DNA of 64,000 bases from a virus. The stretch lies in the IMG/VR virus record IMGVR_UViG_3300028840_002190, one strand, 5' to 3'. Position 1 is the first letter of the stretch. Each line of letters starts with the position of its first letter. This document shows positions 3,701 to 60,107 of the stretch, one piece after another. A model generated the notes under the pieces. It was given only the letters and a program-made list of their open reading frames with translations. It searched no databases and had not been told where the DNA came from. The translations under genes were made by a program, and so were the position numbers.

Positions 3701-3701
3701 C

Positions 3702-6928: not shown

Positions 6929-6940
6929 GCGAAGCTCCTC

Positions 6941-7525: not shown

Positions 7526-7567
7526 TAGAGCCCTCGCTGGTAGAGACTCGAGTACTTTACCACGGCA

Positions 7568-12823: not shown

Positions 12824-12830
12824 TTAACGC

Positions 12831-13277: not shown

Positions 13278-13288
13278 TCTATCTCCAC

Positions 13289-44398: not shown

Positions 44399-44938
44399 AT
44401 GACTGTGGCTAGTAGCAGATTCATACGACTGGCGTCCTACTTCGAGGCTAAACACGACGTAAGGATCCGGTCCAAAGACACTGATCGTGGGGCGTGGGAA
44501 CTTCTCAACCTATTGTGGAGAGGTATCACTTTCGGGCACGGCAAAAACTTACTGAAAAACTACGTGATGACCGTGGGCCGTACGATCTACTTTCCGCTGG
44601 GGTGGACACAGGAATCCGCGGATGATGAAGACTACATCATACTCTGTCACGAACTCAAACACATCGAGCAGTACCGGACCCTGGGATTTGGAAGTGAAAA
44701 ACTAGGATTCGCCATCTTCGCTCTCCTATACCTCCTAGTCCCTCTCCCCCTCGGACTGGCATGGTTCCGCTACGCATTCGAAAGAGCTGCCTACCTCGAA
44801 AGCTACAAGGCCGCTAAGGACCTAGGACTCTCCCCCAAAATTGACTATTATGTAGGTATCCTGAGCGGTGTTACGTATTTCTGGGCGTGGCCGTTCAAGT
44901 TCCTGATCCGCAGGTGGTTCATGCAGAGGTGCAAATGA
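44399..44938 (+). CDS. HExxH zincin-like metallopeptidase with a hydrophobic segment
   Basis: ILCHELKHIEQY plus downstream FERAAY; FAIFALLYLLVPLPLGLAWF. Confidence 0.6.
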   Translation: MTVASSRFIRLASYFEAKHDVRIRSKDTDRGAWELLNLLWRGITFGHGKNLLKNYVMTVGRTIYFPLGWTQESADDEDYIILCHELKHIEQYRTLGFGSEKLGFAIFALLYLLVPLPLGLAWFRYAFERAAYLESYKAAKDLGLSPKIDYYVGILSGVTYFWAWPFKFLIRRWFMQRCK

Positions 44939-45180
44939 CTCCATTCGAAAAAGGAGCGGAAGACGTCTTCGAAGTGTTAGGGGTGAAATCCCCGGGAGTG
45001 GTTTCAGACCTGAAAGAGAAGGTCGTAGAGGGGCTCCCTGAACCGATCAAGGACGTCAAAGAACAGCTTGGAAAGTCTTACCGCGCTACACCCTACTCCC
45101 TACTGTTCGGGCGGTACAAAGACACGCTGGGGAACATGGTGAAGAAGGTAAAAGAAAAAGCCCAAGGGTTGGTGGATTGA
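44935..45180 (+). CDS. Small protein carrying the shared FxxGxxxVxxxLGxK leader
   Basis: ATGA overlap; MTPFEKGAEDVFEVLGVKS. Confidence 0.6.
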   Translation: MTPFEKGAEDVFEVLGVKSPGVVSDLKEKVVEGLPEPIKDVKEQLGKSYRATPYSLLFGRYKDTLGNMVKKVKEKAQGLVD

Positions 45181-45222
45181 AAAAATTTGGCCACGACCTC
45201 GGGAGCAACGAAGTCGTGGCCA
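45181..45222 (-). terminator. Terminator between convergent genes
   Basis: TGGCCACGAC/GTCGTGGCCA 10-bp inverted repeat; T-run on the minus strand. Confidence 0.65.
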
Positions 45223-45260
45223 GGGAGAGCGACAATGCCTAGAAACACCTTAACAAGGTG

Positions 45261-45896
45261 TTATTGATTGTCAACAGCTTTACCGCGTAATTCTTCGTGA
45301 CGTTTCTTGGTGGCCGCTTGTAACCCGAGCAGCCCTAACCCTAAAGCACCAGCCCCCGCCCCCGCGTAGAGCAGCGGCTTTTTATTCTTAGTCGCGAACT
45401 CACGCAGCCCCTTCATCCGTTCCAGAAGGTCGTCCAAGAATTGGCCTCTGCCCTGGGAACGTTCTTTCCACGCCTTCGAGAAAGCGTCCCACCCCTTCGG
45501 CTCAGCCGGACCGGGAGGCGGACCGGGGATCTCACCAGAAAAGCGTGGAGGAGTGCGCTTCTCGGGACGGAAACCCCTCATCTCTTTTGACCCAAGTCCC
45601 AACAGTTCCTCTAGAGGAGAGAGCCCCGACTTCGGATTGACCTTCTGACCTCCTAAAACACGTGGGGCCCGCCCCTCTAAGTCCCCACCTCCCGCACGGT
45701 CTAAAAGCCGTTCGAGGCGGTCCTCAAGGTGCATCACCTTAGGGTCGAGGGGATGTGCGTGAAGTTGGGGGCCCTTCTGTGCCCTGAGGCGTTCGTACCC
45801 TCTCAACGCCGAAATGAGCTCCGCGTTCTCACGTGGACCCTTAGGAAGGTGTTTCGTCCAGCGTCCCTCTTTAGTCAAAACTGATAACAGCCCCAT
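45261..45896 (-). CDS. Basic hypothetical protein with C-terminal glycine-zipper TM (putative internal virion protein)
   Basis: LTKEG near the N-terminus; LLYAGAGAGALGLGLLGL. Confidence 0.6.
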   Translation of the reverse strand: MGLLSVLTKEGRWTKHLPKGPRENAELISALRGYERLRAQKGPQLHAHPLDPKVMHLEDRLERLLDRAGGGDLEGRAPRVLGGQKVNPKSGLSPLEELLGLGSKEMRGFRPEKRTPPRFSGEIPGPPPGPAEPKGWDAFSKAWKERSQGRGQFLDDLLERMKGLREFATKNKKPLLYAGAGAGALGLGLLGLQAATKKRHEELRGKAVDNQ

Positions 45897-45962
45897 GGTA
45901 CAAGCCTTTGTAGGAGAACAACTCGTGGTCTAAGTATAGTACACCGCGAAAAGGAGGGAAAG

Positions 45963-46130
45963 ATGTTGTCATGTATTGTTGGGGGGCTGTGGGTTATCGG
46001 CGCACTCTGCTACGCTGCAGCCCTTTGGAAGAAGGAAGGACCCAACGCAATAGGTGAGGCGTTCCTCTGGCCCCTCATGCTGGTGGTGCGCGCGACGCAT
46101 CAAACCAAGGAAGGACCGAAAGACAGTTGA
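45963..46130 (+). CDS. 55-aa membrane protein (MLSCIVGGLWVIGALCYAAALW...FLWPLMLVV)
   Basis: AAGGAGG RBS with GTATAGT upstream; two hydrophobic stretches; below the track cutoff. Confidence 0.55.
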   Translation: MLSCIVGGLWVIGALCYAAALWKKEGPNAIGEAFLWPLMLVVRATHQTKEGPKDS

Positions 46131-46822
46131 GCTCGAAGTGCAGCCGGATCCTTGGGTACAAGGGACGTGGGAACCGCCTTGGTTTTTACCAGGTAATCCT
46201 TCACGTCCTTGTACCCACGCTTCCAAAGACTCTTGGCAAACTCCTCCATGGCGACACCCCCCTTCGAGGGGATGTTCAGTAATTTTTTGCTCGCGGCACT
46301 CAAGCCTCCCGCAACCGCCATCCCGAGCTCCGAAGCTGCCGGAGCAGGAACTGCGGCCCCCGCTACTCCCAGCGTAGTTCCAGGATGATCCGCGATGAAC
46401 TTGAGTAACTTCTCTCGGAACTCGGGGCTGAGACCAACGTGCCCACGGCTAGAGTGAGTGAGCAACTTGTCAAAACTACGCAACGGTGCATCAGCCGCAC
46501 GGATCGCTACTGGACCTATTTTACGGGCGACGCTATCACGCATAGCGTCTTCAAACGCCCCGGAACTGACGCCCCTCATCGATTTCCGAAAAGCTTTGTT
46601 TCGGTAAAGGTGCCCTGCACCCCTTGAACCACTAGCAATGCCCGCCATCAGACGCGCTAAAAGTGCTTCTTTCTGATGCTCCGCCGTTTTCTCTTCATCT
46701 CCGGGATGACCGTAGTGCAGTAACGACTGCGGCCCATGCTCCCTAAGAATTTTCTTGGAGCCCTTCTGAGCATTTCGTAGAGCCTTGGCCCAACTCTTCG
46801 GGATCCTTCTCGGAATTGCCAT
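46100..46822 (-). CDS. Basic hypothetical protein with EKTA/QKEA motifs and a Gly/Ala-rich hydrophobic segment
   Basis: 240-aa ORF; GTATAATTAG upstream. Confidence 0.65.
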   Translation of the reverse strand: MAIPRRIPKSWAKALRNAQKGSKKILREHGPQSLLHYGHPGDEEKTAEHQKEALLARLMAGIASGSRGAGHLYRNKAFRKSMRGVSSGAFEDAMRDSVARKIGPVAIRAADAPLRSFDKLLTHSSRGHVGLSPEFREKLLKFIADHPGTTLGVAGAAVPAPAASELGMAVAGGLSAASKKLLNIPSKGGVAMEEFAKSLWKRGYKDVKDYLVKTKAVPTSLVPKDPAALRAQLSFGPSLV

Positions 46823-46865
46823 CTAAACACCTCAGGGCAAAAAATTAGCACGGGGCTATCCCGCG

Positions 46866-46875
46866 CTAATTATAC
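46866..46875 (-). promoter_or_regulatory. GTATAATTAG -10-type element
   Basis: 44 nt upstream of the 46822 start; no recognisable -35. Confidence 0.5.
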
Positions 46876-46923
46876 GCTATTTCCTAGGTGTACGGATCAT
46901 CATCTTTGTGCTTCTCGTAACAC

Positions 46924-47349
46924 TCAGTGCAGAGTGGTATCTCCTCCCGTACTTCCGGGCGCATCCGCCGCGTCACCTTGTCCTCGATCACCCGCATCTT
47001 CACCAGCCGGTGTTGTGTCTGACGCGACGGCGTCGTCTCCCCGCACATCTGACAGTTGTACATCCTCTTCCTCCTTGGCCAAGTACTTGTTGAAATCTCC
47101 TCGAACTTCTCCGAACTGTTCCAGCTCCACAGCCGACAGCCGGTCGTGGAACTCCCCCAGCATCTCTTTGAGCGTCTGCGTCAACACCTTGTTAGTCTTG
47201 TGGAGATTCTCGTTCGTGAGTTGCTGTTCGACGAGCATGCGCTTCAGTTGCTCTGTTGGAGCGGCCAGAGTATCGATCTGCTCTTTGATCTTCGCCTGCT
47301 CTATCGTCGGATTTCGGGCCGCGCGCCCTTTGTGTTTTCGATTACCCAT
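46924..47349 (-). CDS. Hypothetical coiled-coil protein
   Basis: Start MGNRKH with GTGAGG RBS. Confidence 0.55.
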   Translation of the reverse strand: MGNRKHKGRAARNPTIEQAKIKEQIDTLAAPTEQLKRMLVEQQLTNENLHKTNKVLTQTLKEMLGEFHDRLSAVELEQFGEVRGDFNKYLAKEEEDVQLSDVRGDDAVASDTTPAGEDAGDRGQGDAADAPGSTGGDTTLH

Positions 47350-47361
47350 GTTCCTCACCCG

Positions 47362-47404
47362 AAAAAAACAGAGTGCCCCAGGGTTGCGCATCCCCGGGGC
47401 ACTC
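47362..47404 (-). terminator. Intrinsic terminator
   Basis: GAGTGCCCC/GGGGCACTC stem followed by TGTTTTTTT on the minus strand. Confidence 0.7.
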
Positions 47405-47446
47405 CTCAGCGCTGTGTTCTTTACGCATTAGAATAGAACTGCAGTC

Positions 47447-47668
47447 TTAAGTATTCCAAAACTCAGGGTACTTAGACTCAGCGCAGGGATTGATCGTTCG
47501 GGCCTCAGGGGAAGACACAGCGCGTCCTTCCCGATTCGCAATAAGAGACCCAGCTTTCGCCTTCTGTAGGCTACTCGCCTGCGTGTTCAGCTCTGCACCC
47601 AGTTGACCCAGCACAGCGCACGCCAGGAAAAGGTGCAGAACGCTCGCCAATAGTAATTGGGCTACCAT
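47447..47668 (-). CDS. Small protein with a signal-peptide-like N-terminus
   Basis: GGGAGG RBS; MVAQLLLASVLHLFLACAVLG. Confidence 0.45.
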   Translation of the reverse strand: MVAQLLLASVLHLFLACAVLGQLGAELNTQASSLQKAKAGSLIANREGRAVSSPEARTINPCAESKYPEFWNT

Positions 47669-47736
47669 TCGGTGCACCTCCCAGGTTAGAGCATTCTACA
47701 TACTTATACCGTAAAGGGAGGAGTTTTTGAAGAGGA

Positions 47737-48990
47737 CTATTCGGCTGACTCTTTGAGCTTTTTCTGGACCAGGGCGTCAACGACGCGCCCTGTGAAGTAC
47801 CCGGAGAGGAGACCACCTACCGCACCCTTACCTGCACCTGCAAGGGATTTACGCAGGGTACCCTTAGGCATCCGGGAGAAGAGGGTTTTAGCCGACGGGG
47901 TATTGCCTGTATTCTTGAACCCCTCGAGGCGTTCGATCACAACCTTCATCGCAGGATCCAGAGCTCCAGAAAGCGCTCCCGCTCCGGCACCTGGTAGGGC
48001 TAGGCGCTTCGTGAAATAGCGGTCGGGAATTGCAGACTCTTCTTCAGACTTCTTTAAGAGACCCTGTTCCTGAGCACGACGTCTAGCAATGCTAGTCCCC
48101 ACAGCTGTACCGATTCCACTCCCGTACCCGGAACCGAACAACGCCGACTGTAACGAAGGGCCAATCAAAGATTTCCACTTCCCCGGCTCGCGTAGCATAG
48201 GACTCTTACGGAGGGCAAGAACAGGAAGTGCAGCCCCTAGAAGCGCACCAATACCTGCACCCCTCAAGCTCCCCTTTCCCACCGGACGCATCGCTTCATC
48301 AATCACGCTACGCTTATGCTTGCGCTTTTTAAGCGACCTTCGAAGACTCTTAGCTCTTACAGCGCCTCCATACGCAGCAGCCAACCCTCCTAGAGGGTAC
48401 AGGGGAGACGTCACTACCCGATACGCAACATTCTTCGGCTGGGACTTCCATCCGGGTCCTCGTGTCCAGCTCGAAGAGGGACGCGCCTTACCCGAACGGA
48501 CATCCTTGGCATACGCCTTGGCGGTGTTCTGGTCCTTTAACCATTCCGACTTCTCAAACTGAGATTGCCAACTCGGAGAACTCTTCTCCCACCCTTTGGG
48601 GAACATACCCTCGATATCCGCATCAGAAGGAGAGGCGTAACCCATCCGCTTAGCTACACGTTTAACGTGTGACGCAATAGTCGGGTCGACAGCGGCCCAC
48701 TTGAGCATCATGTCCCAGTAGCCTGCGGTCTTGACGCGCTGAATAGGGGGAGCCTTTATTCCTCGACGCAGCATGTCCTTCTGACGCTCAATCTCAGCCC
48801 ATACCTCTTCCGCACTCTGGAAGGGCTTCCCGGTAGTAGGGTTAATAGCACGATACCCCACTTTTTCAGCCGCCTTCTTCACTTTATCCGGAAGATCTTT
48901 CATATCGGGAGTATGGTCAGCCCAGCGTTCAGCGATGCGTGGGTGTTCCGAAAACATGAAACGCTGCTGCGCTTTAGATTTGAAGGGCAC
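47737..48990 (-). CDS. Basic multi-glycine-zipper protein (putative internal virion protein)
   Basis: MPFKSKAQQRFMF...HP...RWA N-terminus; KKAA, EKVG, VKTA, LKWA; several GxxxG tracts. Confidence 0.7.
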   Translation of the reverse strand: MPFKSKAQQRFMFSEHPRIAERWADHTPDMKDLPDKVKKAAEKVGYRAINPTTGKPFQSAEEVWAEIERQKDMLRRGIKAPPIQRVKTAGYWDMMLKWAAVDPTIASHVKRVAKRMGYASPSDADIEGMFPKGWEKSSPSWQSQFEKSEWLKDQNTAKAYAKDVRSGKARPSSSWTRGPGWKSQPKNVAYRVVTSPLYPLGGLAAAYGGAVRAKSLRRSLKKRKHKRSVIDEAMRPVGKGSLRGAGIGALLGAALPVLALRKSPMLREPGKWKSLIGPSLQSALFGSGYGSGIGTAVGTSIARRRAQEQGLLKKSEEESAIPDRYFTKRLALPGAGAGALSGALDPAMKVVIERLEGFKNTGNTPSAKTLFSRMPKGTLRKSLAGAGKGAVGGLLSGYFTGRVVDALVQKKLKESAE

Positions 48991-49063
48991 CTACTTCACC
49001 TTCTTCTCTTTCGGAGACACGAAAGTAATCGTCACCGCCTCACCTCTCCAAGCACCCCTGGGT

Positions 49064-50080
49064 TTATGTGTTGGCTTTGATGTGGGTTGCGATTTCTTCT
49101 TTGAGCGCATGCCACGACGCCTTCTTCTCACCCCTCTTACCCTCGAGTTCCGCCTCCATTTTTCCTAACGCGGTGTAGTACTCGGGGTGCTCTTCGAGAT
49201 GATCTTTCGCGATCTCCTTAGCCATAGCAGGGTCGGGGGTGTGTTCCTTCTCGACCTCGATGCCCCGACGGAGCTGGGCTGGGGGGTACGAACTGTCAGG
49301 CTTGCCTTGAGCCTCTCCTCCCGGGATGGACTCTTTAGCCTCTTTCTCTTCCTCAGGACCGCCTTCTACGGTGTCCTCTGGTGGCTTTCCGGTAACCTGC
49401 TGGGCCGCAAGCTGATAGATCAACTCTTCCGCGGCGTGCGGACTCACTCCCCGGGATTCCGCCCACTGATGCAATTCGTAGTCCTCCGGAGTCGGGTTCT
49501 GTCGGAGGAACTCTCGCACCTGCTCCATCGTCACAGGATTTCCCTCCGCCTCCTCCTGTTCCTCTTGAGCTTCCACACCATCAAACGCAGACTTCACAGC
49601 CTCTGCCATCCGGCCAATCGGACCCTTCCCCTTACCTACCTCCACCCCACGACCCTTACCCTTGCTGCGCTTCTTCTCTCCTGGAGTTGAACACAAAGCC
49701 GCACCCATCTTGGCCTGGATGTAGTTGGCCAAGAGGTTCGACTGTGACTGCTGAGGAGTCATGGGTGCAGGCGCGGGAGCTGCAGCTTGCTGCCCTCCTC
49801 CACCTGTCGGGGTTCCCTGCGTCTGCACCTTCACAGCGTGTAGCTCTTCCGTGTGACGCATGCGCTGCTCGTGGAGTTCCTCTTTGTGACGGAGAGCCTG
49901 CTCCTGGGATTCGAGCTTGAGCTTGTGCGCCTCTTCAGCCTGAGGATCAGGCTGTTGCTCGGACTGTGGAGCAGGAGGCGTCGTCATCGGGTCAGAGCGA
50001 GGTTCTTCGTACGTGGAAGTACGGGATACGTCTTCGCTCTGTAGCGGCTCCGCTGTTTTTTCCCAGAAGTGGTAACGCAT
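49064..50080 (-). CDS. DUF5661-like domain protein with KxA motifs
   Basis: Start MRYHFWEKTA; RGIEVEKEHT...AKEIAKDHLEEHPEYYTAL DUF5661-like motif recalled from memory. Confidence 0.65.
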   Translation of the reverse strand: MRYHFWEKTAEPLQSEDVSRTSTYEEPRSDPMTTPPAPQSEQQPDPQAEEAHKLKLESQEQALRHKEELHEQRMRHTEELHAVKVQTQGTPTGGGGQQAAAPAPAPMTPQQSQSNLLANYIQAKMGAALCSTPGEKKRSKGKGRGVEVGKGKGPIGRMAEAVKSAFDGVEAQEEQEEAEGNPVTMEQVREFLRQNPTPEDYELHQWAESRGVSPHAAEELIYQLAAQQVTGKPPEDTVEGGPEEEKEAKESIPGGEAQGKPDSSYPPAQLRRGIEVEKEHTPDPAMAKEIAKDHLEEHPEYYTALGKMEAELEGKRGEKKASWHALKEEIATHIKANT

Positions 50081-50090
50081 CACGCAACTC

Positions 50091-50882
50091 CTAACGGCGG
50101 AACTTAGAAAGAACCGAATCTGCAATCTCGGAAGCTGCTTTCTGCACAGCAGGAGCTTCCACAACAGCCGACTGCTCGGGCTTCAGCTTTCCGATTCCCC
50201 AGTTGGTCCAACCCCCTTTGGTGCCTTCCAACTCTTCATCAAGTGGTGTGAATTTACCACCCCAAGGGTTCCACGCGTTCTTACCTTCGCGATGCTGTTT
50301 TTCGACGTACGCCTGATGACGTGCGGAAGCGACAGGATTTCCTCCGAGACCAAAACGGAGTGCTTTGAGAGGAGACACGACGGCATTGGATTCTGTTCGG
50401 CCACCCGAAGATCCGTGAGCGAGTGCCCCTTGCTCTTGCTGCGCTCTAGCTGCGGCAATAAGCGCGTTCTTTTTAGCCGCAGCTATATCCGCGTCAAATT
50501 GGTGACCCTTTTCCGTAACCGCGAACGCCACCTTCCGGAGAACTTCATCCGCGAGTTCAGAAGCGGTCTTCTCTTTCTTGTTCTTGGACGCCAGAGCAGC
50601 CGTAGCCGCACCTGTGCCGAGGACGCCCGCGCCGATACCAGCGGCAGCGTAGGGGCGCTTCTTAGCCATCATCTGCAATGCCCCTCGTCCAGCTTTCCCC
50701 GCAGTAGCGCCAACAGCTTCACCTACGGGAGCAGAACCGTCACCCCCGACACCCCTGGCACCCTTGGCAGCTCCACGCCCAACATCCTTGGCGACTGTAC
50801 CAACTGCCTGACCCGCGCCACGAACCTTGCTCATGACTTTCTTCGCGATCTCGCTCGCGCTCGACGCCTCTTTGCTGGACAT
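50091..50882 (-). CDS. Ala/Gly/Lys-rich protein with three ASE[IL]AxxV[LM]xK repeats and a glycine zipper
   Basis: Start MSSKEAS with AAGGAG RBS. Confidence 0.7.
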   Translation of the reverse strand: MSSKEASSASEIAKKVMSKVRGAGQAVGTVAKDVGRGAAKGARGVGGDGSAPVGEAVGATAGKAGRGALQMMAKKRPYAAAGIGAGVLGTGAATAALASKNKKEKTASELADEVLRKVAFAVTEKGHQFDADIAAAKKNALIAAARAQQEQGALAHGSSGGRTESNAVVSPLKALRFGLGGNPVASARHQAYVEKQHREGKNAWNPWGGKFTPLDEELEGTKGGWTNWGIGKLKPEQSAVVEAPAVQKAASEIADSVLSKFRR

Positions 50883-50937
50883 GATCAACTCCTTTTTACT
50901 AAACGTCGTTTTTTTATCGTCCCTACGACTAGACGTA

Positions 50938-50947
50938 CCAATTATAC
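50938..50947 (-). promoter_or_regulatory. GTATAATTGG -10-type element
   Basis: Between the terminator and the 50882 start. Confidence 0.5.
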
Positions 50948-50957
50948 GAGAAAACCC

Positions 50958-50986
50958 CAAACCAAAAAAGGAGCCGATGCTCCTTT
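50958..50986 (-). terminator. Intrinsic terminator
   Basis: AAAGGAGC/GCTCCTTT stem with 4-nt loop, then a T-run on the minus strand. Confidence 0.7.
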
Positions 50987-51000
50987 ACGTGGTAATTCTC

Positions 51001-51495
51001 CTACGCGGCGGAAGCCGATAGAAGTTTGAGAATGGCTTTCTTGGGAGGAATCTCGTCAGGCAAGTGTAGCGCGAAATTCTCCAGGATGTGTGGAAGTCGC
51101 ACTACGTCCAAGAACGGAGAGATGCTCTGGTCCACCCGGCTGAAGATATGATGTTGTAGCCAAGGGTCCAATCGTAGATTCAAGAATATATGCTTTAGAG
51201 CGTTCTTGTACTGCTCATCAGCCACGTACCCTCCAGCAGGAGCGTGCCGGGTCTCCTTTATCATCATACCGTCAAGCAATGCGTACTCCATCTTCACCAG
51301 GAAACTCAAGTGTGTCAGTGCTCTCCCGACATCAGCAATATGCCCCTCTCGGATTTGGAAGACGAAAAGCTCTGGACGGGTTTTGTGTTGGAAGAACTGG
51401 ACTGCTCCGCGGAACGTGTTGAATTCGTCCTTGAGGAGGTTGCTGACCTCTAGCAGTGTCTGGACTTGTTTAAAGATCCGGTCTCGACGTGACAT
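51001..51495 (-). CDS. Hypothetical protein
   Basis: 164-aa ORF. Confidence 0.55.
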   Translation of the reverse strand: MSRRDRIFKQVQTLLEVSNLLKDEFNTFRGAVQFFQHKTRPELFVFQIREGHIADVGRALTHLSFLVKMEYALLDGMMIKETRHAPAGGYVADEQYKNALKHIFLNLRLDPWLQHHIFSRVDQSISPFLDVVRLPHILENFALHLPDEIPPKKAILKLLSASAA

Positions 51496-51523
51496 GGGAA
51501 ACGCTCCGAAGGTTGAAGGTTGA

Positions 51524-52009
51524 CTACTGAGGCTTGTTCCTCGTAGTCGACTTCTTCTTCGGGGCTTTCTTATTCGGAGCTTTCTTCTTCGGGGCCGCCT
51601 TGGGAGGCACGGAATCCACGTGCAGGTCCCCCCGCGTCCCGGTCATCTTGTTGTAGACCTGGGAGATGACCGAACGCCGACGTGCGTCCATGACTACACT
51701 GTCAGGAGCTGCCGGGACGTTCTGGAGGGCTCTCTTGGCGCACTCCACGCCGAAGTGGATCAGGACCTCCCCCGGCAACATGTTGTAGGTCTCGGCCACC
51801 TCCCGAATGAAGTTGGCCTCCTCTACGGTCATGTGGACCTTCTGTGTCGAGATGAATGTTCGCGCCTCCCGGTAGCCCACACCGTAGATCGACTCGATCT
51901 CCCGGAATGTAGCTCCCAGGTTGAGCTTCTTGAGAATGCGCTCGATGAGCTCGGCTCTCGCCTGAGCCATCGCTTGCTCCTGCGCATTGATGTTCGGTTT
52001 GGTTGGCAT
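51524..52009 (-). CDS. Hypothetical DNA-binding (HTH/RHH-like) protein with a lysine-rich tail
   Basis: GATFREIESIYGVGYREA HTH-like segment; PKKKAPNKKAPKKK; AAAGGAG RBS. Confidence 0.55.
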   Translation of the reverse strand: MPTKPNINAQEQAMAQARAELIERILKKLNLGATFREIESIYGVGYREARTFISTQKVHMTVEEANFIREVAETYNMLPGEVLIHFGVECAKRALQNVPAAPDSVVMDARRRSVISQVYNKMTGTRGDLHVDSVPPKAAPKKKAPNKKAPKKKSTTRNKPQ

Positions 52010-52039
52010 TGTCGCACGTACTCCTTTCCGTAGCTGTCC

Positions 52040-52453
52040 CTACTCCAGAGAGTAGAGCTTTCGGCCATCTCGCTTCCCGGAGGTTTTCACCTTCACCGGA
52101 GGATTCTTGGTCTTGCCGTGGGTGATCGCGTAGAGCGCCGAACAGACCGCCGTGGAGAGGCGCGTCTGACTGAGCTCGAGGTTCTCCTCCGAGAGAATCC
52201 TCGCCTTGACCTTGTCAACGAGGTCATTCGACGTGAACTTCCCCTTCATTGAAGGAAGCTCTCCGTAGATGTACTCCGACATGGTCTTCTTGCGCGGCGA
52301 CTTCCCCTTCCCAGCCTTCAAAGCGCGCGGCTCCGACGCGTCCTGCATCCGGAAGGACGCATGCACCTCCAACCATGCCTCGAGACGTGCCTGCGCCTCC
52401 AGAATGATTCCCTGCTGCTCTGCGATCTTGTTCTCGACCTGCTCAATGTTCAT
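52040..52453 (-). CDS. Coiled-coil plus winged-HTH-like hypothetical protein
   Basis: N-terminal coiled coil; FTSNDLV...VCSALY. Confidence 0.55.
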   Translation of the reverse strand: MNIEQVENKIAEQQGIILEAQARLEAWLEVHASFRMQDASEPRALKAGKGKSPRKKTMSEYIYGELPSMKGKFTSNDLVDKVKARILSEENLELSQTRLSTAVCSALYAITHGKTKNPPVKVKTSGKRDGRKLYSLE

Positions 52454-52474
52454 TGGATAGAGCCTCCCTCTTAG

Positions 52475-52975
52475 CTAGTAGCCCCTCATGAGCTCCGCGT
52501 AGTCGAACTTGTTACCCAACACCATTCTGATATTTGTCTGGTTGTACGCCCACCCCACTACCTCTTTATTGAGTAGGTGGACGTGGGTAGGAACGTATTC
52601 GTTGTTGTGTGCGAAGCGGATACCTTTCGCTGTTGGGCGGTACGTCCCCGCTTTACCGCCAGCGCGATTAGTACCGTCAGACCTCTCTACCAGTCCCCAG
52701 TACTTCAAGAACCCACCATCGGTCCCCCCGGCTCTCAAGTGTCGATCCCCCCTGATAAGCTCGATGGTCTTGTACCAGCGAGGGTCATCGGTGTACGCCT
52801 GTACGAGCTTGATCAGGAAAAGCGCCATCTCCGAATGCATCTTTCGCCTGTAGACCTGCACATGACGATTACATACGGGACAGGTTGTTCCCTGGGGATC
52901 ATCAGCTGCTCGGCGTACCTCCGTCTGTAGCTGTTCCAACACATACTGACGAGTAGTCTTCTCTGACTCCTCCAT
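52475..52975 (-). CDS. Phage winged-helix-like hypothetical protein
   Basis: CPVC...YRRK; LKYWGLVE...YRPTAKGIRF. Confidence 0.6.
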   Translation of the reverse strand: MEESEKTTRQYVLEQLQTEVRRAADDPQGTTCPVCNRHVQVYRRKMHSEMALFLIKLVQAYTDDPRWYKTIELIRGDRHLRAGGTDGGFLKYWGLVERSDGTNRAGGKAGTYRPTAKGIRFAHNNEYVPTHVHLLNKEVVGWAYNQTNIRMVLGNKFDYAELMRGY

Positions 52976-53049
52976 GAGGTGCCCTCCTGCATAGTTGAAA
53001 TGTGGGGTTACCCTCTTCTACCAAGAAGAAGGCTCAGATCTTGGAAAAA

Positions 53050-53385
53050 TCACTCCGAGCACGCCAGGAACCACTTAGGAGGAACGTAGTCGACACCGAA
53101 GGACTGAAGAATGTCCTTGAGCTCATCCCTCTCCGGCGGCTTCATCTTCTGTTCCTGGACTCCTTTGGGATTGATCATCTTGAACGGGTCGGGATCGGTG
53201 TGGTGGGCTGTGAGACGTGCAAGACAGAGGTACGCGCTGAAGCGACCTCGAGACTGTCGAAGATGGAGCTCCCACTCGCTCCCGACAAAGTTCTCATCAA
53301 AGAGGTACGAGTAATCCGTCTTCACCTTTCCATTTTCGTACTGTTGGACGGGTAAACGAACTCCATAGAAAAGCACTGCTTTCAT
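53050..53385 (-). CDS. Hypothetical protein
   Basis: AAGGAG RBS, 111 aa. Confidence 0.6.
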   Translation of the reverse strand: MKAVLFYGVRLPVQQYENGKVKTDYSYLFDENFVGSEWELHLRQSRGRFSAYLCLARLTAHHTDPDPFKMINPKGVQEQKMKPPERDELKDILQSFGVDYVPPKWFLACSE

Positions 53386-53403
53386 GACACGAACTCCTTC
53401 TTA

Positions 53404-53730
53404 CTAAAAAAGCGGCGCATCCGTGTACGCCACTAGATCCTCACGATTGAGCACGTAGAACTTAGGGGACTCTCTAGCCTGCGCCTCTCGGAGCGCCTCC
53501 TCCTCAAGAACGACCCACGGGTCTCTGCAGCAGCCCATGGAACAATCCTGCACCGACACCATGACCTGACAGGGGTCTTTAGGCAGGTGCGCCGGGACAA
53601 ACCACAGTCGGATTCCGAGTTCTCTTAAAAACGAATGTAAATGTGTAAAAGGGATGTCCAGAGAGTACGCCCCAACGGGGAGGCTAAAGTCGTCCAACAT
53701 CAACCATCGAACACGTTTAGGACTCGCCAT
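53404..53730 (-). CDS. Hypothetical protein ending YTDAPLF
   Basis: 108-aa ORF. Confidence 0.6.
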   Translation of the reverse strand: MASPKRVRWLMLDDFSLPVGAYSLDIPFTHLHSFLRELGIRLWFVPAHLPKDPCQVMVSVQDCSMGCCRDPWVVLEEEALREAQARESPKFYVLNREDLVAYTDAPLF

Positions 53731-53746
53731 CTTTACCCCGTAAAAC

Positions 53747-54187
53747 TCAGAACACAGGAGCGTCTGTGTAGGGCATAGCTAGCGTACGTTTTACGTAGTA
53801 CCACTCTCCCCGCGTTGTTCTTTTAGTTACGTTGCCCGTGGAAGTCGAGTGCCACAACACGAGAACCTGGTGTCTGTCATCAAAGAGCCATCCAGAGTAC
53901 GCACCCATCAACGCGCTATGCGCCCAAACAACAAAGTATTCAGGAGGAATACCCGAGTGTTTCTTGTGGATGAGGTCCGCCAACTCCTGCGTCGTGAGTT
54001 CCTTACCGTACCGCAACATCCACTCACGCAAAGGCTCCCCGCTATCCGGGAGCTTAAACCTGTACGTATTTTCCGAGGCCATCGGAACAAACTCCCTTGC
54101 TGTAGGTTTTGGGGGGATGTCAGTCGCTACGAGAATGTAGCGAACGACCTCGCTGAGGAACTGGAGGCAGAGCGCTAAGCATCTCAT
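53747..54187 (-). CDS. Hypothetical protein ending YTDAPVF
   Basis: 146-aa ORF. Confidence 0.6.
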   Translation of the reverse strand: MRCLALCLQFLSEVVRYILVATDIPPKPTAREFVPMASENTYRFKLPDSGEPLREWMLRYGKELTTQELADLIHKKHSGIPPEYFVVWAHSALMGAYSGWLFDDRHQVLVLWHSTSTGNVTKRTTRGEWYYVKRTLAMPYTDAPVF

Positions 54188-54437
54188 TGACCAACTCTTT
54201 CGGTAAGACGTACGCCTCGGAAACGCTCAAACCAGAAACGCCTACAGGGAGAAAGAGTTCATCCGTACGGTCATGAATGAGCGCCCGCGGAGGATCCGAT
54301 GTCGAATAAACCACGTGCACCAAGATAGAGGTGTCCGCATCTACGTCCTCGAGCTGCTCAAAAGACTCGAGCTTCATGCCTGCCTGTTCGATGAAAAAGG
54401 GCACGTTGATGTGCGGAGGGAACTGTAACCACAGCAT
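54120..54437 (-). CDS. Hypothetical protein
   Basis: GAAGGA RBS, 105 aa. Confidence 0.5.
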   Translation of the reverse strand: MLWLQFPPHINVPFFIEQAGMKLESFEQLEDVDADTSILVHVVYSTSDPPRALIHDRTDELFLPVGVSGLSVSEAYVLPKELVNEMLSALPPVPQRGRSLHSRSD

Positions 54438-54526
54438 GTCTTGTCCTTCCGAGAGTTAAAAATCTGTAGCGCAGGCGAAAGCCTCTATGCGCAGTACAGT
54501 CTTTTACCTACAAAGGCGACAGCTTT

Positions 54527-54712
54527 TTAACGCGACCTCCGGTAACGCTGTACCTTAACCGGAGAATTGGGACACTTGATCTGAACGGAATCGTGCCACC
54601 CGTCACTCCCGAGATAGTCAACGGAACAATCCGGATAACGCATTCGTGCGTATTTGACGGCTTCAGGAGTACAAGCAGCAAAAAGAAGAAAAAACACGAG
54701 AATCCAACGCAT
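54527..54712 (-). CDS. Small lipoprotein
   Basis: MRWILVFFLLFAAC lipobox; TAAATG junction with the upstream gene. Confidence 0.6.
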   Translation of the reverse strand: MRWILVFFLLFAACTPEAVKYARMRYPDCSVDYLGSDGWHDSVQIKCPNSPVKVQRYRRSR

Positions 54713-55327
54713 TTACAGTTTATCCATCGCGCTGCTCTTGCCTTCGGAGAACGTGGCGGTGGCACGCGTTGGTTTGAACGCACCCGATCCCTTTGCTAAG
54801 TTTCCAGCCGTGTAGCCACCCTCTCGTCCCGCAGCGCTTCGGAGAGACTTGGTGATCATGTTCGGCTGTTGAATGCCCAGAGCGAACTTGTGCATCACAT
54901 CTTCATACCCCCTGCGGAAGAACGCACTGACCTTGATGCGACTAGTGTTCGCCATTCCGGTACCCTTGAAGACCCCCATGTGCCCCGTACTAGGAGTGTT
55001 GAACGACGTGGTCGTCTTGGGGCCTTCGACAGACGAGTAACCAGAATTCGACGAAGAACTGCCACTAGTACTCTCCGCGCTCTGTTTGTCCATGTGCTTA
55101 CCTAGACGGTGTCCAAGATACGAACCTCCGATACCCGCAGAAGCGCCTAACGCCCCCCCACCGAGAACCCCCAAAAGGAGTCGCAGTTTGTCAGAAGGGA
55201 TCTTCCGCGCAATCTCAGGAGACAATCCTGCAAGCGTAGCTCCTGAAAGCGCTCCGAGGGCTCCTGGGACTGCGCCGGAACCTAACGCGTCGAGCGCGGT
55301 GTAGTCTTCAGAACTCTGCTTGGCCAT
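54713..55327 (-). CDS. Glycine-zipper protein with KQS/KVS/KFA motifs (putative internal virion protein)
   Basis: AAAGGAG RBS; GAVPGALGALSG, LGVLGGGALGASAGIGG; AFFRRGYEDVMHKFALG. Confidence 0.65.
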   Translation of the reverse strand: MAKQSSEDYTALDALGSGAVPGALGALSGATLAGLSPEIARKIPSDKLRLLLGVLGGGALGASAGIGGSYLGHRLGKHMDKQSAESTSGSSSSNSGYSSVEGPKTTTSFNTPSTGHMGVFKGTGMANTSRIKVSAFFRRGYEDVMHKFALGIQQPNMITKSLRSAAGREGGYTAGNLAKGSGAFKPTRATATFSEGKSSAMDKL

Positions 55328-55360
55328 AACGGACTCCTTTCCCCCTTGGCGTCAAGAACC

Positions 55361-56608
55361 TTACTCTTCGCCATAACCCGGCTCCACTCTTCCACCCAAC
55401 GGATGGATCTTGATGTCCCCCTTGAACGTGTGAGGGATGATTCTAGTAAATATCTCTTTCAAAGATCGAGTCGACGGCTTATACAGCGCTTTCTGCAGCT
55501 GCTTGTCCAACGCATCTTCAGCTACGTACTTGTACTCAGGATGGAGTTTCTCGAACTCCTCGATACGCTTACGGGGCGCAAAAACGTATCCCTTGCCGAT
55601 ACCGAGACGTCGAGCCGTCCCTGACTTTCGAGGAGCCACGATGGCCTCGTCTCGAATGAGATTGAGGAACGGAGAGTCCTTAGCGGTACGACTTATGGTT
55701 ACAAATCCTACATCCCCATACTCCGGATCCCGGAGCAGCCCATGCCGCGTAGCGTAAACCGTGTTCTTGAGATGTTGCCTAATTTTATCCAGGGACGCCT
55801 TAGCAGCGTCCTCGCGCCTGCCCGACTTCCCGGTCTCGAAATCCTTCAGTAATCCTCTACGGTACAGCTCTGTGGCGGGCAATGCGCCGCCTATGTCGAG
55901 AACCTCGCTGCCAGCATGTGTGCGATGACCTACTACGTCCTTACGTTTCAAGAACCGAAGTAGTCTTTGCCTATCCTCTTCCAACGTAGGATCGACCACG
56001 TAGGAGAGCTTCTCCCGCGAAAGAGTAGGCACCCCCATAACGTCTCGCATCTCACGCTTGAACCGTCGGTACCGGGTCTTTCCGAAGAGCGGAGTATCGC
56101 GCAGGAGCTTCTTTTTGGCTAAGAGTTGTGCCTTGAGCTCCGGATCCATCATAGAAACCCCGCGACGCAACTTAGTAGTGGCGTCCCGGTACTCAGCTCC
56201 AGGGCCCCCGTATGCAATAGCAAGGTCTACAGGGAAACCGCTAGCACCTGGCGTCTTCCGACTGAACACGGCGTAACCAGCCCCCGGCTTGTTGTAAGGG
56301 CTCGGTGCGAAAACTCCGGACTCGGTGAGATCCTGAAGCACTTTCCTGAACTGTTCTCGATCCTGTACGTCAGCAAAGAAGTCAATATCGACAGAGTCAG
56401 GCAAGTTGAGACCACTGTGCATTGACCCTGTAAGCTTGGGCTTTAAACCATACGCCTTTTGAAGGCGGTACGCTTCTCGGCGAATGCCTTTACGAATATC
56501 GTCAGGGTCGTACGTGTTACGCGTCTCAGGCGATACGAAAAGCCTATCGATCTTGTTCAGAAGAGAAGGCTTAGCAAGCTCACGGAGTCGGTCTTTAGAT
56601 ACGGTCAT
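55361..56608 (-). CDS. Pol-beta-superfamily nucleotidyltransferase fused to a putative ADP-ribosyltransferase domain
   Basis: G61-S62...D74-x-D76...D128 NTase triad; C-terminal H228-x-T...IGGAL, VYAT, YG, E321 ART-like pattern. Confidence 0.6.
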   Translation of the reverse strand: MTVSKDRLRELAKPSLLNKIDRLFVSPETRNTYDPDDIRKGIRREAYRLQKAYGLKPKLTGSMHSGLNLPDSVDIDFFADVQDREQFRKVLQDLTESGVFAPSPYNKPGAGYAVFSRKTPGASGFPVDLAIAYGGPGAEYRDATTKLRRGVSMMDPELKAQLLAKKKLLRDTPLFGKTRYRRFKREMRDVMGVPTLSREKLSYVVDPTLEEDRQRLLRFLKRKDVVGHRTHAGSEVLDIGGALPATELYRRGLLKDFETGKSGRREDAAKASLDKIRQHLKNTVYATRHGLLRDPEYGDVGFVTISRTAKDSPFLNLIRDEAIVAPRKSGTARRLGIGKGYVFAPRKRIEEFEKLHPEYKYVAEDALDKQLQKALYKPSTRSLKEIFTRIIPHTFKGDIKIHPLGGRVEPGYGEE

Positions 56609-57996
56609 GACAGCAGCTCCAAAAGCTCCTGATTCAGCTTACGCTTCTGCTCTGACATGTTCGCAAGAACTTGCTCTACGCCGTCAGGCTTTGCCCCGAA
56701 CGCCCGTCCAAGAAGTCCTGGACGCGGGTAAGTGAGATAGCGCTGCACCTTTACGTTACGCTGGCTAGGGGGAAGGTGCGCGTGCGATTTGTGACGGATG
56801 GCACGCCCGATGACCTGTTCCAACTTCTCTTCGTTCCAGTGTGGCTCGAGAACCTGAACCTGACGCGTACCCTTGAGATCAAGGCCTTCTCCGCCAGCCG
56901 AAGAGACTAGGAGTGCTTTGATCTTACCGGCGTTGTAGTCCTCAACTGCCTGCTGCCGTACCTTCTTTGGAACCTTCCCTGAAAAGATGGCGTGTGGAAT
57001 TTTCTTCTTGTCGAGCTCTTTAGCGTAGCCTTGGAGGGTGTCGAGGTAGTTCGAGTAGACTACCGCTTTGTGTTTAGAATTTCCCTTCACCTCAGTGGTG
57101 AGATCCTGCAATGCGCGTTCTAGCTTAGGCGTAAGACCTTCGGCTTTAAGGTCCTTCTGGAAACGCTTCATAGACCCGCTGAGTTGTCGCGTCTGAGACT
57201 GAAACTGGTTGAGCTTCGGAAGGTCCTTCTTCTCCGGTGGTAGCCCTGCTTTGAGACGCGCTCGAGATGTCCAAGGAAGCTGCTCCCACGCGAAGTTGTG
57301 GAGCTTAGTCTGCGCAGGGGACATCATGACATCGACACGCTCATCCACCCGATCCGGGAACTCGCCTCCCTGAAGATCCTGGTAGTCCACCCACTTCTGG
57401 AGGACCTTCTTCAGTTCCTTCTTGTTCATGAGTTTCGGGCGCTTCGTTGTCCACGGCATCGTCGCCCAAAAACCCTTGCCAGGCTCCTTGATGTACTTCT
57501 GCTTGAACTCTGCGTCTGTAGGGAGAACCTTATCACCTGCAGCGATGTTCACCAGCGCAGCAATATCCCCTGGACGGTTGTAAACGGGAGTCGCAGTCAA
57601 AAGGAGACGCTTCTCCGCAGGGTAATTACGGAGGAACTGGTTGATCTTGGTCTTCGTCTCTCGCGCCCGGTGAGCCTCATCAACGATTAGGAGTTTCACA
57701 GGATCCGCGTCACCACGCAGTACGGCTCGCTGTACGCTCCCGATATCGACTGGCGTCTTCTGATCTGTGTGTTTCTCCAGCTCCTTAGCGTAATTCGCAA
57801 CAAGAGCGGCGGGAACAAGAGCCTTAGCCTCGCCTTCCGCGTCGGCCACCCCGATAGACGTAAGCGTCTTACCGGTGCCGAGACCGTGAGCGACAACAAG
57901 CCCAGAAGCGTTACGCATACGGTCAAGCACCCGCTTCTGGTGCTCCATCAACTCCGTGTTGACCTTGGCGATCTTCGACTGGAGAGTAGTATCCAT
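56605..57996 (-). CDS. SNF2/SF2 helicase, poxvirus D6/D11-like
   Basis: HGLGTGKT, DEAH, LTATP, SSAGGEGLDLK, EPHWN, EQVIGRAIRHKSH. Confidence 0.85.
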   Translation of the reverse strand: MDTTLQSKIAKVNTELMEHQKRVLDRMRNASGLVVAHGLGTGKTLTSIGVADAEGEAKALVPAALVANYAKELEKHTDQKTPVDIGSVQRAVLRGDADPVKLLIVDEAHRARETKTKINQFLRNYPAEKRLLLTATPVYNRPGDIAALVNIAAGDKVLPTDAEFKQKYIKEPGKGFWATMPWTTKRPKLMNKKELKKVLQKWVDYQDLQGGEFPDRVDERVDVMMSPAQTKLHNFAWEQLPWTSRARLKAGLPPEKKDLPKLNQFQSQTRQLSGSMKRFQKDLKAEGLTPKLERALQDLTTEVKGNSKHKAVVYSNYLDTLQGYAKELDKKKIPHAIFSGKVPKKVRQQAVEDYNAGKIKALLVSSAGGEGLDLKGTRQVQVLEPHWNEEKLEQVIGRAIRHKSHAHLPPSQRNVKVQRYLTYPRPGLLGRAFGAKPDGVEQVLANMSEQKRKLNQELLELLS

Positions 57997-58811
57997 CAGC
58001 CCGCTTCCGTCGAAGTGAAATAGCGGTGCGGAGAATTACGGATCGTATCCGCCAAATCTAACTGGGAATCGCTGCCGTCAAGAGCTTTCCACCCCTTGTC
58101 CCCATAGCCTTTCATTTCCCCTTCCAGGAGTTCCAAAAGTTTCTCTTTAGACAGGTAACCCTTTCCCGTAGGGGAGTCCGTAAAACCTTCGTGCTCGCTT
58201 CCCCCTACGAGCTGAGGAACACCTACATACTTATCAAACCACCCCAACTCCTGACCCTTGAACGGATCAGCGGAGAAGTCATAAGTATCTCCCGGGTAGG
58301 GGTGTTCGGCTTCGTACTTATCGTAGAACTCTCGGCGCTTCTGCCGATGAGCGTTATACGCGTCCCTCTCTCGAGGGTCTACCGACCCCTTAGCGCCACC
58401 TCCACGCGTCAACGACCCGATCTGTGCGCCACCCAGGCCCCCTGTCAACAGTCCGATAGCGCCCCCGGTAGCTGCTCGGGATAAGGGGCGCCCCTTGAGG
58501 GCAGCCAGACCGACTCCCGCACCTAACAACCCTCCTAAACCCGAGCCGATGAGCGCACCTTTACGTACTGCAGGATGCGTTACACGCAGACTCGGGACTT
58601 TCATCGTACCCACCGCCTCGTCCGCAGCAGCTTCGCGATCCTTCTCGTAGGAATACAGGGCCTTCTCGGCCTGTAGCGCCTTTTGTCGTTCCTGCTGGAA
58701 GGTGTCCAGGTCGTCGAAACCTACGATATTCTGCCAGTACCCTGCGGTCTTATCGAGGCCGAAACCCCTCAAAACGGAAGCTATACCTTGCGCGTATGGA
58801 ACGTTTCTCAT
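57996..58811 (-). CDS. Glycine-zipper protein with leader ending DKTA (putative internal virion protein)
   Basis: GGAGG RBS; MRNVPYAQGIASVLRGFGLDKTAG; two GxxxG tracts. Confidence 0.7.
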   Translation of the reverse strand: MRNVPYAQGIASVLRGFGLDKTAGYWQNIVGFDDLDTFQQERQKALQAEKALYSYEKDREAAADEAVGTMKVPSLRVTHPAVRKGALIGSGLGGLLGAGVGLAALKGRPLSRAATGGAIGLLTGGLGGAQIGSLTRGGGAKGSVDPRERDAYNAHRQKRREFYDKYEAEHPYPGDTYDFSADPFKGQELGWFDKYVGVPQLVGGSEHEGFTDSPTGKGYLSKEKLLELLEGEMKGYGDKGWKALDGSDSQLDLADTIRNSPHRYFTSTEAG

Positions 58812-58834: not shown

Positions 58835-58844
58835 GTAAATATAC
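58835..58844 (-). promoter_or_regulatory. GTATATTTAC -10-like element
   Basis: Between the terminator and the RBS of 58811. Confidence 0.4.
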
Positions 58845-59701: not shown

Positions 59702-59819
59702 GGCTGTCCTCCAGTTGAAAAGTGTAGCAGACCTTTTCCGTACACACTTACTTGTACCGGGTTTGTAGAGGCGTTTCTGGAAGCCAAAAAGACGCCGGGG
59801 GAGGCGTCTAGAAGGGAGA

Positions 59820-60107
59820 TCAGTCGTCAAACTCCTCGATGAATTCTACGTGAGTGTCGACGTCCAAGACGACGCTCTTGAGGTCTTTCACTCGGAACAC
59901 AGCACCCTGAACAGAGTGGGCGTGGGAACAGGCACAATTTCCAACACCGTCAGGGAGGTCGAGAGCGTCAACGGTGTCCATGTCCTGGTTGGAAGTCAGG
60001 AACTCCGACACATCACGCATGTTGTTAAACGTATCGACACTGAGGTCCTGTCCGCATATCACCAAGAACTGCTCATTCTTCTTAACTTGTTTTTTCGCTT
60101 TAGCCAT
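59820..60107 (-). CDS. Hypothetical protein
   Basis: 95 aa, coupled start/stop overlap. Confidence 0.55.
   Translation of the reverse strand: MAKAKKQVKKNEQFLVICGQDLSVDTFNNMRDVSEFLTSNQDMDTVDALDLPDGVGNCACSHAHSVQGAVFRVKDLKSVVLDVDTHVEFIEEFDD

Follow-up and report, generated by a model that had tools for sequence, protein, structure and literature searches.

Interchangeable leader peptides with a conserved K-x-A boundary in a family of large uncultured phages: a candidate signal for capsid loading and processing

Why do so many unrelated proteins encoded at one phage locus carry the same short lysine-containing motif, and could that motif label them for carriage in the phage head? The question arises in a 64,000-nucleotide stretch of viral DNA (IMG/VR record IMGVR_UViG_3300028840_002190; below, "the window" means this whole stretch), where an earlier note had singled out ten open reading frames (ORFs) in or beside the minus-strand block at 45-64 kb that is studied here. 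Described as mostly basic, their products were said to bear K-x-[ASG] at leader ends or domain joints, and a lysine-containing processing and packaging signal was proposed on a varied cargo including enzymes. The quoted peptides are all present in their ORFs, and seven of the ten proteins have pI 9.8-10.4; LGVKS, quoted for ORF 44935-45180, does not fit the pattern, and that ORF has KGA at residues 6-8. The proposal itself gains from comparative evidence (a boundary kept in 26 of 26 and 13 of 13 cases, swappable leaders, a head-gene context and a gp21-like protease in relatives) and loses the generic tripeptide as its marker. The comparison drew on related IMG/VR contigs found via the helicase of the block, which is 54-58% identical in relatives. 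They include L001 (28 kb) and L002, the latter part of the 172,892-bp, 97% complete genome G001, whose head module is L007.

Two kinds of leader recur, both ending in K-x-A and both placed at N-termini and at module joints. The type-1 leader is a 17-residue peptide, M[RK]KTAxQIAxxxLxK[VC]A, consisting of KTA, an amphipathic helix of about nine residues and then K[VCL]A. The type-2 leader has an N-terminal helix, Gx3[AV][LF]x2LG, and, 1-3 residues further on, K[TE]A. What these leaders precede is best seen in the 271-aa product of ORF 57996-58811 (minus strand), where a 23-residue leader (58743-58811) comprises the helix GIASVLRGFG and LDKTA, and is followed by the core GYWQNIVGFDD, two Gly-zipper segments and the C-terminal motif SPHRYFTST. 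A HMMER search with this protein against 1.84 billion cluster representatives returned 30 relatives, and the core G-Y-[WFY]-Q-N-[IV]-V-G is present in 26 of them. Directly before that core, Lys occupies position -3 in 26 of 26 clusters and position -1 is Ala in 22, Gly in two and Ser in two; position -2 is variable, and -5 is Leu or Ile in 19 of the 26. Clusters with less than 50% identity still share K at -3 and A at -1. The sequence in front is a type-1 leader in eight clusters and a type-2-like or other leader in others, and in six the boundary is an internal joint of a longer protein.

The same boundary precedes a second, unrelated domain. ORF 50091-50882 (minus strand) encodes a modular protein of 263 aa, in which a weak type-1 peptide (50820-50861) and a Gly-rich segment are followed by the type-1 peptide KEKTASELADEVLRKVA (50526-50576), the conserved domain FAVTEKGH...REGKNAWNP and a C-terminal type-1 peptide, VQKAASEIADSVLSKFR (50097-50147). 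K-x-[AG] stands directly before the F[SA]VT[ED]xGH domain in 13 of 13 copies from 12 proteins, with the helix (window, L001, L017 and L018) and without it (L010, L012, L014 and L016), and K105-T-A107 of the window protein is invariant in four homologues. A search for related loci in metagenome contigs with the 50091 family found none. The alignment of homologues that the earlier note had called for accordingly returns an invariant K-x-A boundary before two unrelated domains, with leaders of differing type in front of it: the boundary is conserved and the leaders are interchangeable. That leaders and boundary together form a conserved functional unit we regard as very likely.

How widespread is the type-1 peptide? 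L001 has four copies of MRKTANQIADEAL[LFT]K, two of them N-terminal, one where a DUF5662 and a 50091-type domain join, and one in a C-terminal extension of the helicase. L002 has six copies, and in G001 a profile search gave six matches, all inside 5.5 kb, and none in the rest of the genome. The profile, built from 11 sequences, scores 24-36 bits on the L001 and L002 copies and at most 3.8 bits on reversed sequences; one L002 copy outside the training set scores 16.9 bits. Its matches in the window are KEKTASELADEVLRKVA and VQKAASEIADSVLSKFR (26.7 and 25.9 bits, both copies belonging to the training set) and the weak third copy, all in ORF 50091-50882. The peptide is also present in L003 and L006 and is common to at least six unrelated protein contexts; a degenerate DNA pattern for its canonical form found four IMG/VR contigs only. 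Two window ORFs, 57996-58811 and 44935-45180, have type-2 leaders, and relatives add seven N-terminal examples. In the alignment, LDKTA-GYW of the window matches LFKCA-GYY of the L001 orthologue, whose type-1 leader ends in KCA; the type-1 peptide therefore ends in a K-x-A of its own, and the leader is flanked by two such sites. A-D-E appears in some type-1 copies without conservation. A-x-E or L/I-x-E was considered as the conserved site and rejected, the boundary being K-x-A/G/S with no conserved Glu.

Does the tripeptide itself carry information? The count of K-x-[AS] is 43, with 46.1 expected when the residues are shuffled within each protein, and that of K-x-[ASG] is 57 against 73.9; in the window, K.A stands at 0.8 times its composition expectation. 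A raw density of the trimer that is 2.5-fold higher is due to Lys/Ala/Gly-rich composition, and the generic K-x-[ASG] trimer, for want of enrichment, was rejected as a marker. The real units are, on the sequence evidence, the longer leaders. The KTA form is more frequent than predicted in the block, with five observed and 1.4-1.7 expected (P 0.01-0.03, post hoc), and all five copies lie in the first 40% of their protein, which sets them apart from the window's seven other KTA (Mann-Whitney P 0.0025). The argument from position and context holds in part. Because the ORF list was chosen on the motif, position tests on the listed ORFs are biased; a comparison of all 20 block ORFs with the other 48 window ORFs (P 0.011-0.022) is positive, K-x-[AGS] falling in the first 25 residues of 10 of the 20 and 9 of the 48 (P 0.011). 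Beyond position, homologues with differing flanks keep the sites of 57996-58811, 56605-57996, 55361-56608, 50091-50882 and 47737-48990 and the C-terminal site of 49064-50080.

The head genes of relatives carry the same mark. The contigs L003 and L006, members of the G001 phage family by their head protease (53-62% identical) and capsid protein (68-75% identical), have the type-1 peptide inside their head modules. The gene order in L003 runs from RNA-polymerase beta-beta' to a small Gly-zipper protein with a type-1 leader, a LigD PrimPol-plus-phosphoesterase protein (Pfam) with a C-terminal type-1 peptide, the C-terminal part of RNA-polymerase beta', further leader-bearing proteins, an acidic scaffold-like protein and an 847-aa portal-like protein. 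Homologues of block genes, or peptide-bearing genes, lie between RNA-polymerase genes adjoining the portal-like gene in both L001 and L003, and in L010 the DUF5661 and 50091-type genes directly follow the capsid gene. At 2440-9330 L001 encodes a beta-beta' RNA-polymerase fusion (2296 aa) with intein-like inserts, one of them inside the ADYDGD catalytic motif.

KTA is concentrated in these modules. Eight copies were observed in the G001 head module against 1.19 expected (6.7-fold, P 3.5e-5) and eight in that of G004 against 1.06 (7.6-fold, P 1.5e-5); the window block at 44.9-58.9 kb has five against 1.72 (2.9-fold, P 0.031). The excess is not significant in the window tail module (four against 1.87, 2.1-fold), the window nucleotide and replication genes (three against 1.46, 2.1-fold) or the tail-like genes of G001 (one against 0.68, 1.5-fold). 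Over 13 loci KTA occurs 74 times, with 20.8 expected and 13-26 for each of its five permutations; the next residue is S in 17, G in 13 and A in 10 of the 74, and the preceding one is mostly E. The earlier note had also asked for a check of capsid and scaffold proteins, and in relatives K-x-A is present in both. KTA(S) keeps its place while its flanks have diverged in the scaffold-like protein and in small head proteins of 71 and 110 aa. In the capsid protein K29 and A31 are found in 120 of 120 clusters and E30 in 118, and residues 1-26 are less conserved (0.70) than residues 34-100 (0.86). P0212, which is 69% identical to the major capsid protein (MCP) of G001 and reads RVKEAAEE, is probably the MCP of the window genome itself. 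Pfam gave no match to the head proteins of G001.

Is there a protease that could read such a site? The L006 orthologue of the head protease matches the PHROG family "head maturation protease" (phrog_18299) at 2.8e-5. The fold was tested on G001/G004 family sequences, and in a model built on 60 members of the family the confidently predicted domain (about residues 49-222) superposes on T4 gp21 (5jbl_B) with Z 10.1 and an rmsd of 2.8 Å over 129 residues. The next structural matches stand at Z 7.2, and herpesvirus assemblins at Z 5.3-6.8. On this model the phage family is predicted to encode a prohead protease of the gp21/assemblin fold, and the invariant His113 and Ser164 are its candidate catalytic residues. 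Pfam models S77 and S78 did not match the proteins of G001 and G002, sequence searches of the PDB with the protease gave nothing useful, and Foldseek alone gave weak rows only (E 0.19 and above). The protease has seven conserved K-x-[AGS] triples against 2.6 expected, among them one (residues 37-39) at the transition from the low-confidence N-terminus to the fold, one in a linker (234-236) and one 13 residues from the C-terminus (678-680). This pattern would fit self-processing, without proving it. The long C-terminal part of the protease has Gly-rich segments like those of the block proteins. Many head proteases of the phage family carry inteins (Pfam PF14528/PF14890).

Since the K-x-A that ends the leaders also marks the capsid, scaffold and head protease of relatives, it is probably a label meaning "load into the capsid, then cut". 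In the mechanism we propose, by analogy with the capsid-targeting sequence (CTS) of T4, the leader helix would draw the protein into the assembling prohead by binding to its scaffold or core. The gp21-like prohead protease would cut after the small residue of [LI]-x-K-x-A, before G, S, A or F, removing leaders and separating fused modules. The mature proteins would stay in the head and exit with the DNA. The cargo would comprise the Gly-zipper proteins, the SNF2 helicase, a two-part enzyme-like protein, the DUF5661 and DUF5662 proteins and, in relatives, the LigD-type polymerase/phosphoesterase. The motifs with their conservation and positions, their concentration in the head modules of relatives and, as a model, the protease fold are what was found; from these and from T4 we infer binding, exact cut position, packaging and ejection. 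For the full chain, from capsid targeting through cutting at K-x-A to carriage inside the head, a system like the T4 CTS with a different code, we see a slightly better than even case from sequence, model and analogy.

Could the recurrence of K-x-A be an accident of composition? K-x-A/S/G is common in Lys/Ala/Gly-rich proteins, its frequency in the window does not exceed what composition predicts, and ORFs picked for having it near their starts bias any position test on them. An explanation by chance nevertheless has to contend with the unbiased comparison of the block with the rest of the window, with the 26 of 26 and 13 of 13 conserved boundaries, with the KTA excess in relatives and with the separation of the 17-residue peptide from its reversed controls; contradicted in five or more of the ten ORFs, and possible for those starting at 44935, 45261, 46100 and 54713, it is very improbable as a general account. 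A further reading keeps the repeat and denies the peptide a function: conserved nucleotides would mark recombination junctions for module shuffling. Modules have indeed been shuffled at peptide sites. In L001 (11621-12577) the N-module of the 50091 type is replaced by DUF5662 (1.2e-27), joined via a type-1 peptide at 12179, and DUF5662 is also found free; P0002, 70% identical to the window 50091 protein, runs on past the last peptide into an extra Gly-zipper module, at the point where the window protein and P0003 stop. The 856-aa protein of L002 is built in a similar way, and the four L001 copies are alike at the DNA level. Yet these copies vary at synonymous sites, and between genomes the amino acids are kept while the DNA has diverged, so that selection acts on the peptide, not on the DNA. 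On this ground we rejected a repeat at the DNA level as the cause of the recurring peptide; with K and A also kept at -3 and -1 across the distant clusters of the 57996 family, recombination junctions are a highly unlikely explanation.

It is also conceivable that the peptides are never cut and act as docking or assembly helices for a common partner, such as a phage RNA polymerase, a chaperone or a compartment, K-x-A then being a helix-capping or other structural feature. Their helical and amphipathic character, the resemblance of T-A-x-[QE] to a helix N-cap, the position of peptide-bearing genes between RNA-polymerase genes in L001 and L003 and the existence of C-terminal copies all agree with this. 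Docking alone does not account for K-x-[AG] standing directly before the 50091-type domain where the helix is missing, for a tripeptide that keeps its place in the scaffold-like protein, the small head proteins and the capsid N-terminus, or for K-x-[AGS] on either side of the folded protease domain, and we consider it unlikely. Less likely still, and quite improbable, is that these are host-membrane proteins for takeover, exclusion or lysis, with Gly-zippers spanning the membrane and leaders serving as membrane-targeting helices unrelated to the capsid. Uncharged Gly/Ala-rich 18-mers in six of the ten ORFs and the strongly basic character of seven speak for it; on the other side, soluble nucleic-acid enzymes (the SNF2 helicase, the L003 LigD PrimPol-phosphoesterase and DUF5662 proteins) share the leaders or junction peptides, the head protease has similar Gly-rich C-terminal segments, and the leaders are unlike hydrophobic signal peptides.

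Several observations weigh against capsid targeting followed by cutting at K-x-A. The first KTA of N-terminal type-1 leaders is only 3-5 residues from the start and therefore has no obvious role as a cut site, and the two type-1 peptides at C-termini (window 50091-50882 protein and P0003) are not predicted by a pure N-terminal leader model. K and A may be kept as part of the domains that follow them, not as a cut site. In the window the generic trimer is not enriched, and the block KTA count of five against 1.7 is a post hoc one. The head-module, protease and capsid results come from relatives, the head genes of the window genome lying outside the window, and in that genome the block is tens of kb from the head genes. 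The homologue comparison covers ORFs 57996-58811, 56605-57996, 55361-56608, 50091-50882 and 47737-48990, five of the ten, and the C-terminal site of 49064-50080. Finally, the promoter-like sequence GTATAA[TG] precedes genes of all modules, block and nucleotide-metabolism genes alike, which leaves it ambiguous as a sign of late expression of the block. Another sequence, TACTTA[AG], occurs in eight copies in the window, three of which, correctly oriented at 58837, 47453 and 45936 (minus strand), lie 26-62 nt upstream of 57996-58811, 46924-47391 and 45261-45896 (TACTTAG 40 nt upstream of the last). By its sequence and placement it may be a phage-specific promoter element.

How would a K-x-A label compare with known systems? 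The internal proteins of T4 are diverse, their sole common feature being the CTS that gp21 removes, and Alt is processed at both ends (PMC3012670, PMC9026906). The likeness to IPI, IPII, IPIII and Alt is considerable: a short N-terminal peptide is the sole common feature of unrelated, mostly basic proteins, it ends at a motif that also marks capsid and scaffold, the phage family is predicted to have a gp21-fold protease, some copies are C-terminal as with Alt, and the genes lie apart from the head genes. In contrast to T4, the site here is [LI]-x-K-x-A/G/S and not L/I-x-E, one cargo family has leaders of at least two unrelated types, longer proteins have the peptide between their modules as well, a helicase and, in relatives, a LigD-type enzyme would be among the cargo, and the present system is a predicted one. 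The listed ORFs showed no sequence homology to IPI-III or Alt in Pfam and PHROG searches or in tblastn of three of their proteins against 50,697 phage records, and no published Lys-type prohead cleavage site was found in the literature.

In SPN3US the head protease cuts after A-X-E and strips N-terminal propeptides from head and ejection proteins (PMC10052503). The phiKZ-like giant phages, with their head ejection proteins and virion RNA polymerase (phiKZ gp175; SPN3US gp245), resemble the present family in their large size, in multisubunit RNA-polymerase genes among head genes (here in relatives L001 and L003), in many head proteins with N-terminal propeptides, putative in the present case, and in a protease predicted to process itself. 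They differ in that A-x-E is not conserved here, the genome is smaller (about 170-185 kb) and beta and beta' are fused. No homology to SPN3US or phiKZ ejection proteins was found. The polyvalent proteins of phages and conjugative elements, including DarB and DdrB of P1 (Iyer et al., 2017; PMC5512222), similarly combine a SNF2-type ATPase with small domains of unknown function in variable fusions, and are predicted to travel with DNA and to be freed by proteolysis. The window helicase matches positions 692-1101 of the 1881-position profile phrog_62. Unlike polyvalent proteins, most modules are separate genes here and the joints carry a defined peptide. Multi-domain fusions are found in relatives (the L002 856-aa protein, the L001 DUF5662 fusion and P0002), window modules being mostly separate. 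Pfam showed no peptidase domain in the ten listed ORFs, the nearest being a weak match in the separate HExxH ORF 44399-44938.

The comparison with herpesvirus assemblins rests on the related protease fold and on the proposed P1 Ala with a small P1' residue. Assemblin maturation sites are cut between Ala and Ser. In the phage proteins the cut position is read from sequence, and a P3 Lys preference such as that proposed here is, to our knowledge, not one known for assemblins.

The remaining proteins of the block are diverse. Among the ten listed ORFs, the SNF2 helicase (56605-57996) and the DUF5661 domain (49064-50080) are the only matches to known families in Pfam and PHROG. The helicase (minus strand, 463 aa; Pfam Helicase_C and SNF2-rel_dom; phrog_62 at 2e-46) begins with a 10-residue stretch ending in KIA (57967-57975), just before its core. 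Orthologues have a K-x-A at the equivalent place, KRA in L001 and KTA in L002, where the alignment shifts it by one column, and the L001 orthologue adds the C-terminal type-1 peptide and a weak DUF6582 match. The adjoining ORF 55361-56608 (minus strand) encodes a 415-aa protein in two parts, with EKLS at the joint (KLS at 56003-56011). Its N-terminal part has a GS...DIDFF signature and reads as a putative nucleotidyltransferase-like domain. The protein has no Pfam or PHROG family; it is 50% identical to the product of L001 13373-14578, which has EKTS at the equivalent joint beside a 4-residue indel.

ORF 49064-50080 (minus strand) encodes a 338-aa acidic protein with DUF5661 (Pfam 2.8e-11). 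It begins MRYHFWEKTA (KTA at 50051-50059) and has EKKAS after the domain; its L010 homologue (8924-9310), encoded just after the capsid gene, has EKKAF at the equivalent place. Neither this ORF nor 46100-46822 has a homologue in G001-G004. A stand-alone DUF5662 protein (Pfam 6.8e-40) is encoded at 62297-62797 (minus strand), outside the range of the earlier note. No literature on DUF5661, DUF5662 or DUF6582 was found. The basic 417-aa product of ORF 47737-48990 (minus strand) begins PFKSKAQQRFMF, then KKAA, and goes on to VKTAGYWDMMLKWAA (48691-48735), a divergent form of the type-1 peptide that precedes a conserved segment and several Gly-zippers. Residues 82-178 of the protein match two L002 genes (tblastn); the homologous segment follows VKTAGYW in the window protein and the type-1 peptides MKKTADQISWSVLLKVAA and MYKTAEQISWNILLKAA in the products of the two L002 genes. 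In L002, at 12377-14947 (minus strand), the 856-aa protein of G001 links four or more modules through type-1-like peptides and has no Pfam or PHROG match; by its sequence one module is ATP-grasp-like.

For the smaller ORFs the evidence is the sequence of each. ORF 54713-55327 (minus strand) specifies a basic Gly-zipper protein of 204 aa with MAKQS at the N-terminus, DKQS at residue 81 and two uncharged 18-mers; the basic 240-aa product of 46100-46822 (minus strand) has EEKTAEHQKEA at residues 43-53 (KTA at 46682-46690); and that of 45261-45896 (minus strand), basic and 211 aa long, starts MGLLSVLTKEG and has a Gly/Ala-rich hydrophobic C-terminal segment. The 81-aa product of 44935-45180 (plus strand) has a type-2-like N-terminal helix, GAEDVFEVLG (44953-44982), by pattern match with the leaders of relatives. 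A further candidate, absent from the earlier list, is the basic 137-aa protein of 52040-52453 (minus strand), which begins MNIEQVENKIA.

Some neighbours are of interest in their own right. ORF 44399-44938 (plus strand), whose stop overlaps the start of 44935-45180 (ATGA), encodes a basic 179-aa protein with HELKH (HExxH) and a weak Pfam match to eCIS_core/DUF4157 (E 4.7e-4), and its product may be a zincin-like peptidase. Adjoining the block, the product of ORF 58898-59830 (minus strand) combines a lipoprotein-like signal with a long (D-A/T/S)n repeat rich in Asp and a C-terminal part rich in Cys. Three dissimilar small proteins (53404-53730, 53747-54187 and 61016-61783, all minus strand) end in a common tail, [AP]-Y-T-[DN]-[AF]-P-[LV]-F, which looks like a short terminal docking motif and which we take to recall the ...IPF tip of bacterial SSB. 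Elsewhere in the window, profile searches identify a class II ribonucleotide reductase (855-3494), a minus-strand module for tail and baseplate (4.2-33 kb), and helicase and nucleotide-metabolism genes on the plus strand (34-43 kb). Against the same 50,697 phage records, megablast of the block gave no match, indicating that no close DNA relative is deposited there, and tblastn of three block proteins matched none.

What would such a label mean for the phages that carry it? Judged by its head protease (428 clusters) and capsid protein (844 clusters), this is a large family of uncultured phages, in which contigs reach about 185 kb. Those of its members that bear a source name are all called hypothetical, some lying in metagenome-assembled genomes (MAGs) labelled Chloroflexi or Planctomycetota. 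It is possible, though we put it forward tentatively and at somewhat less than even likelihood, that this family uses a modular address-label system in which unrelated leaders share one protease code, [LI]-x-K-x-A, at either end of a protein or between modules. Any protein might then be loaded, freed and delivered with the DNA, perhaps together with a virion RNA polymerase, the cargo including a helicase, a LigD-type enzyme for end processing, a nucleotidyltransferase-like protein and glycine-zipper proteins. If so, the gp21/assemblin class of capsid proteases would gain a new specificity, and short tags with a defined removal site would become available for loading foreign proteins into capsids, as with the T4 CTS. 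There would also be a sequence rule for listing the capsid-carried, infection-delivered proteins of a large, uncultured and abundant phage family, and these carried proteins would be first-strike tools against host defences that are otherwise invisible in metagenomes.

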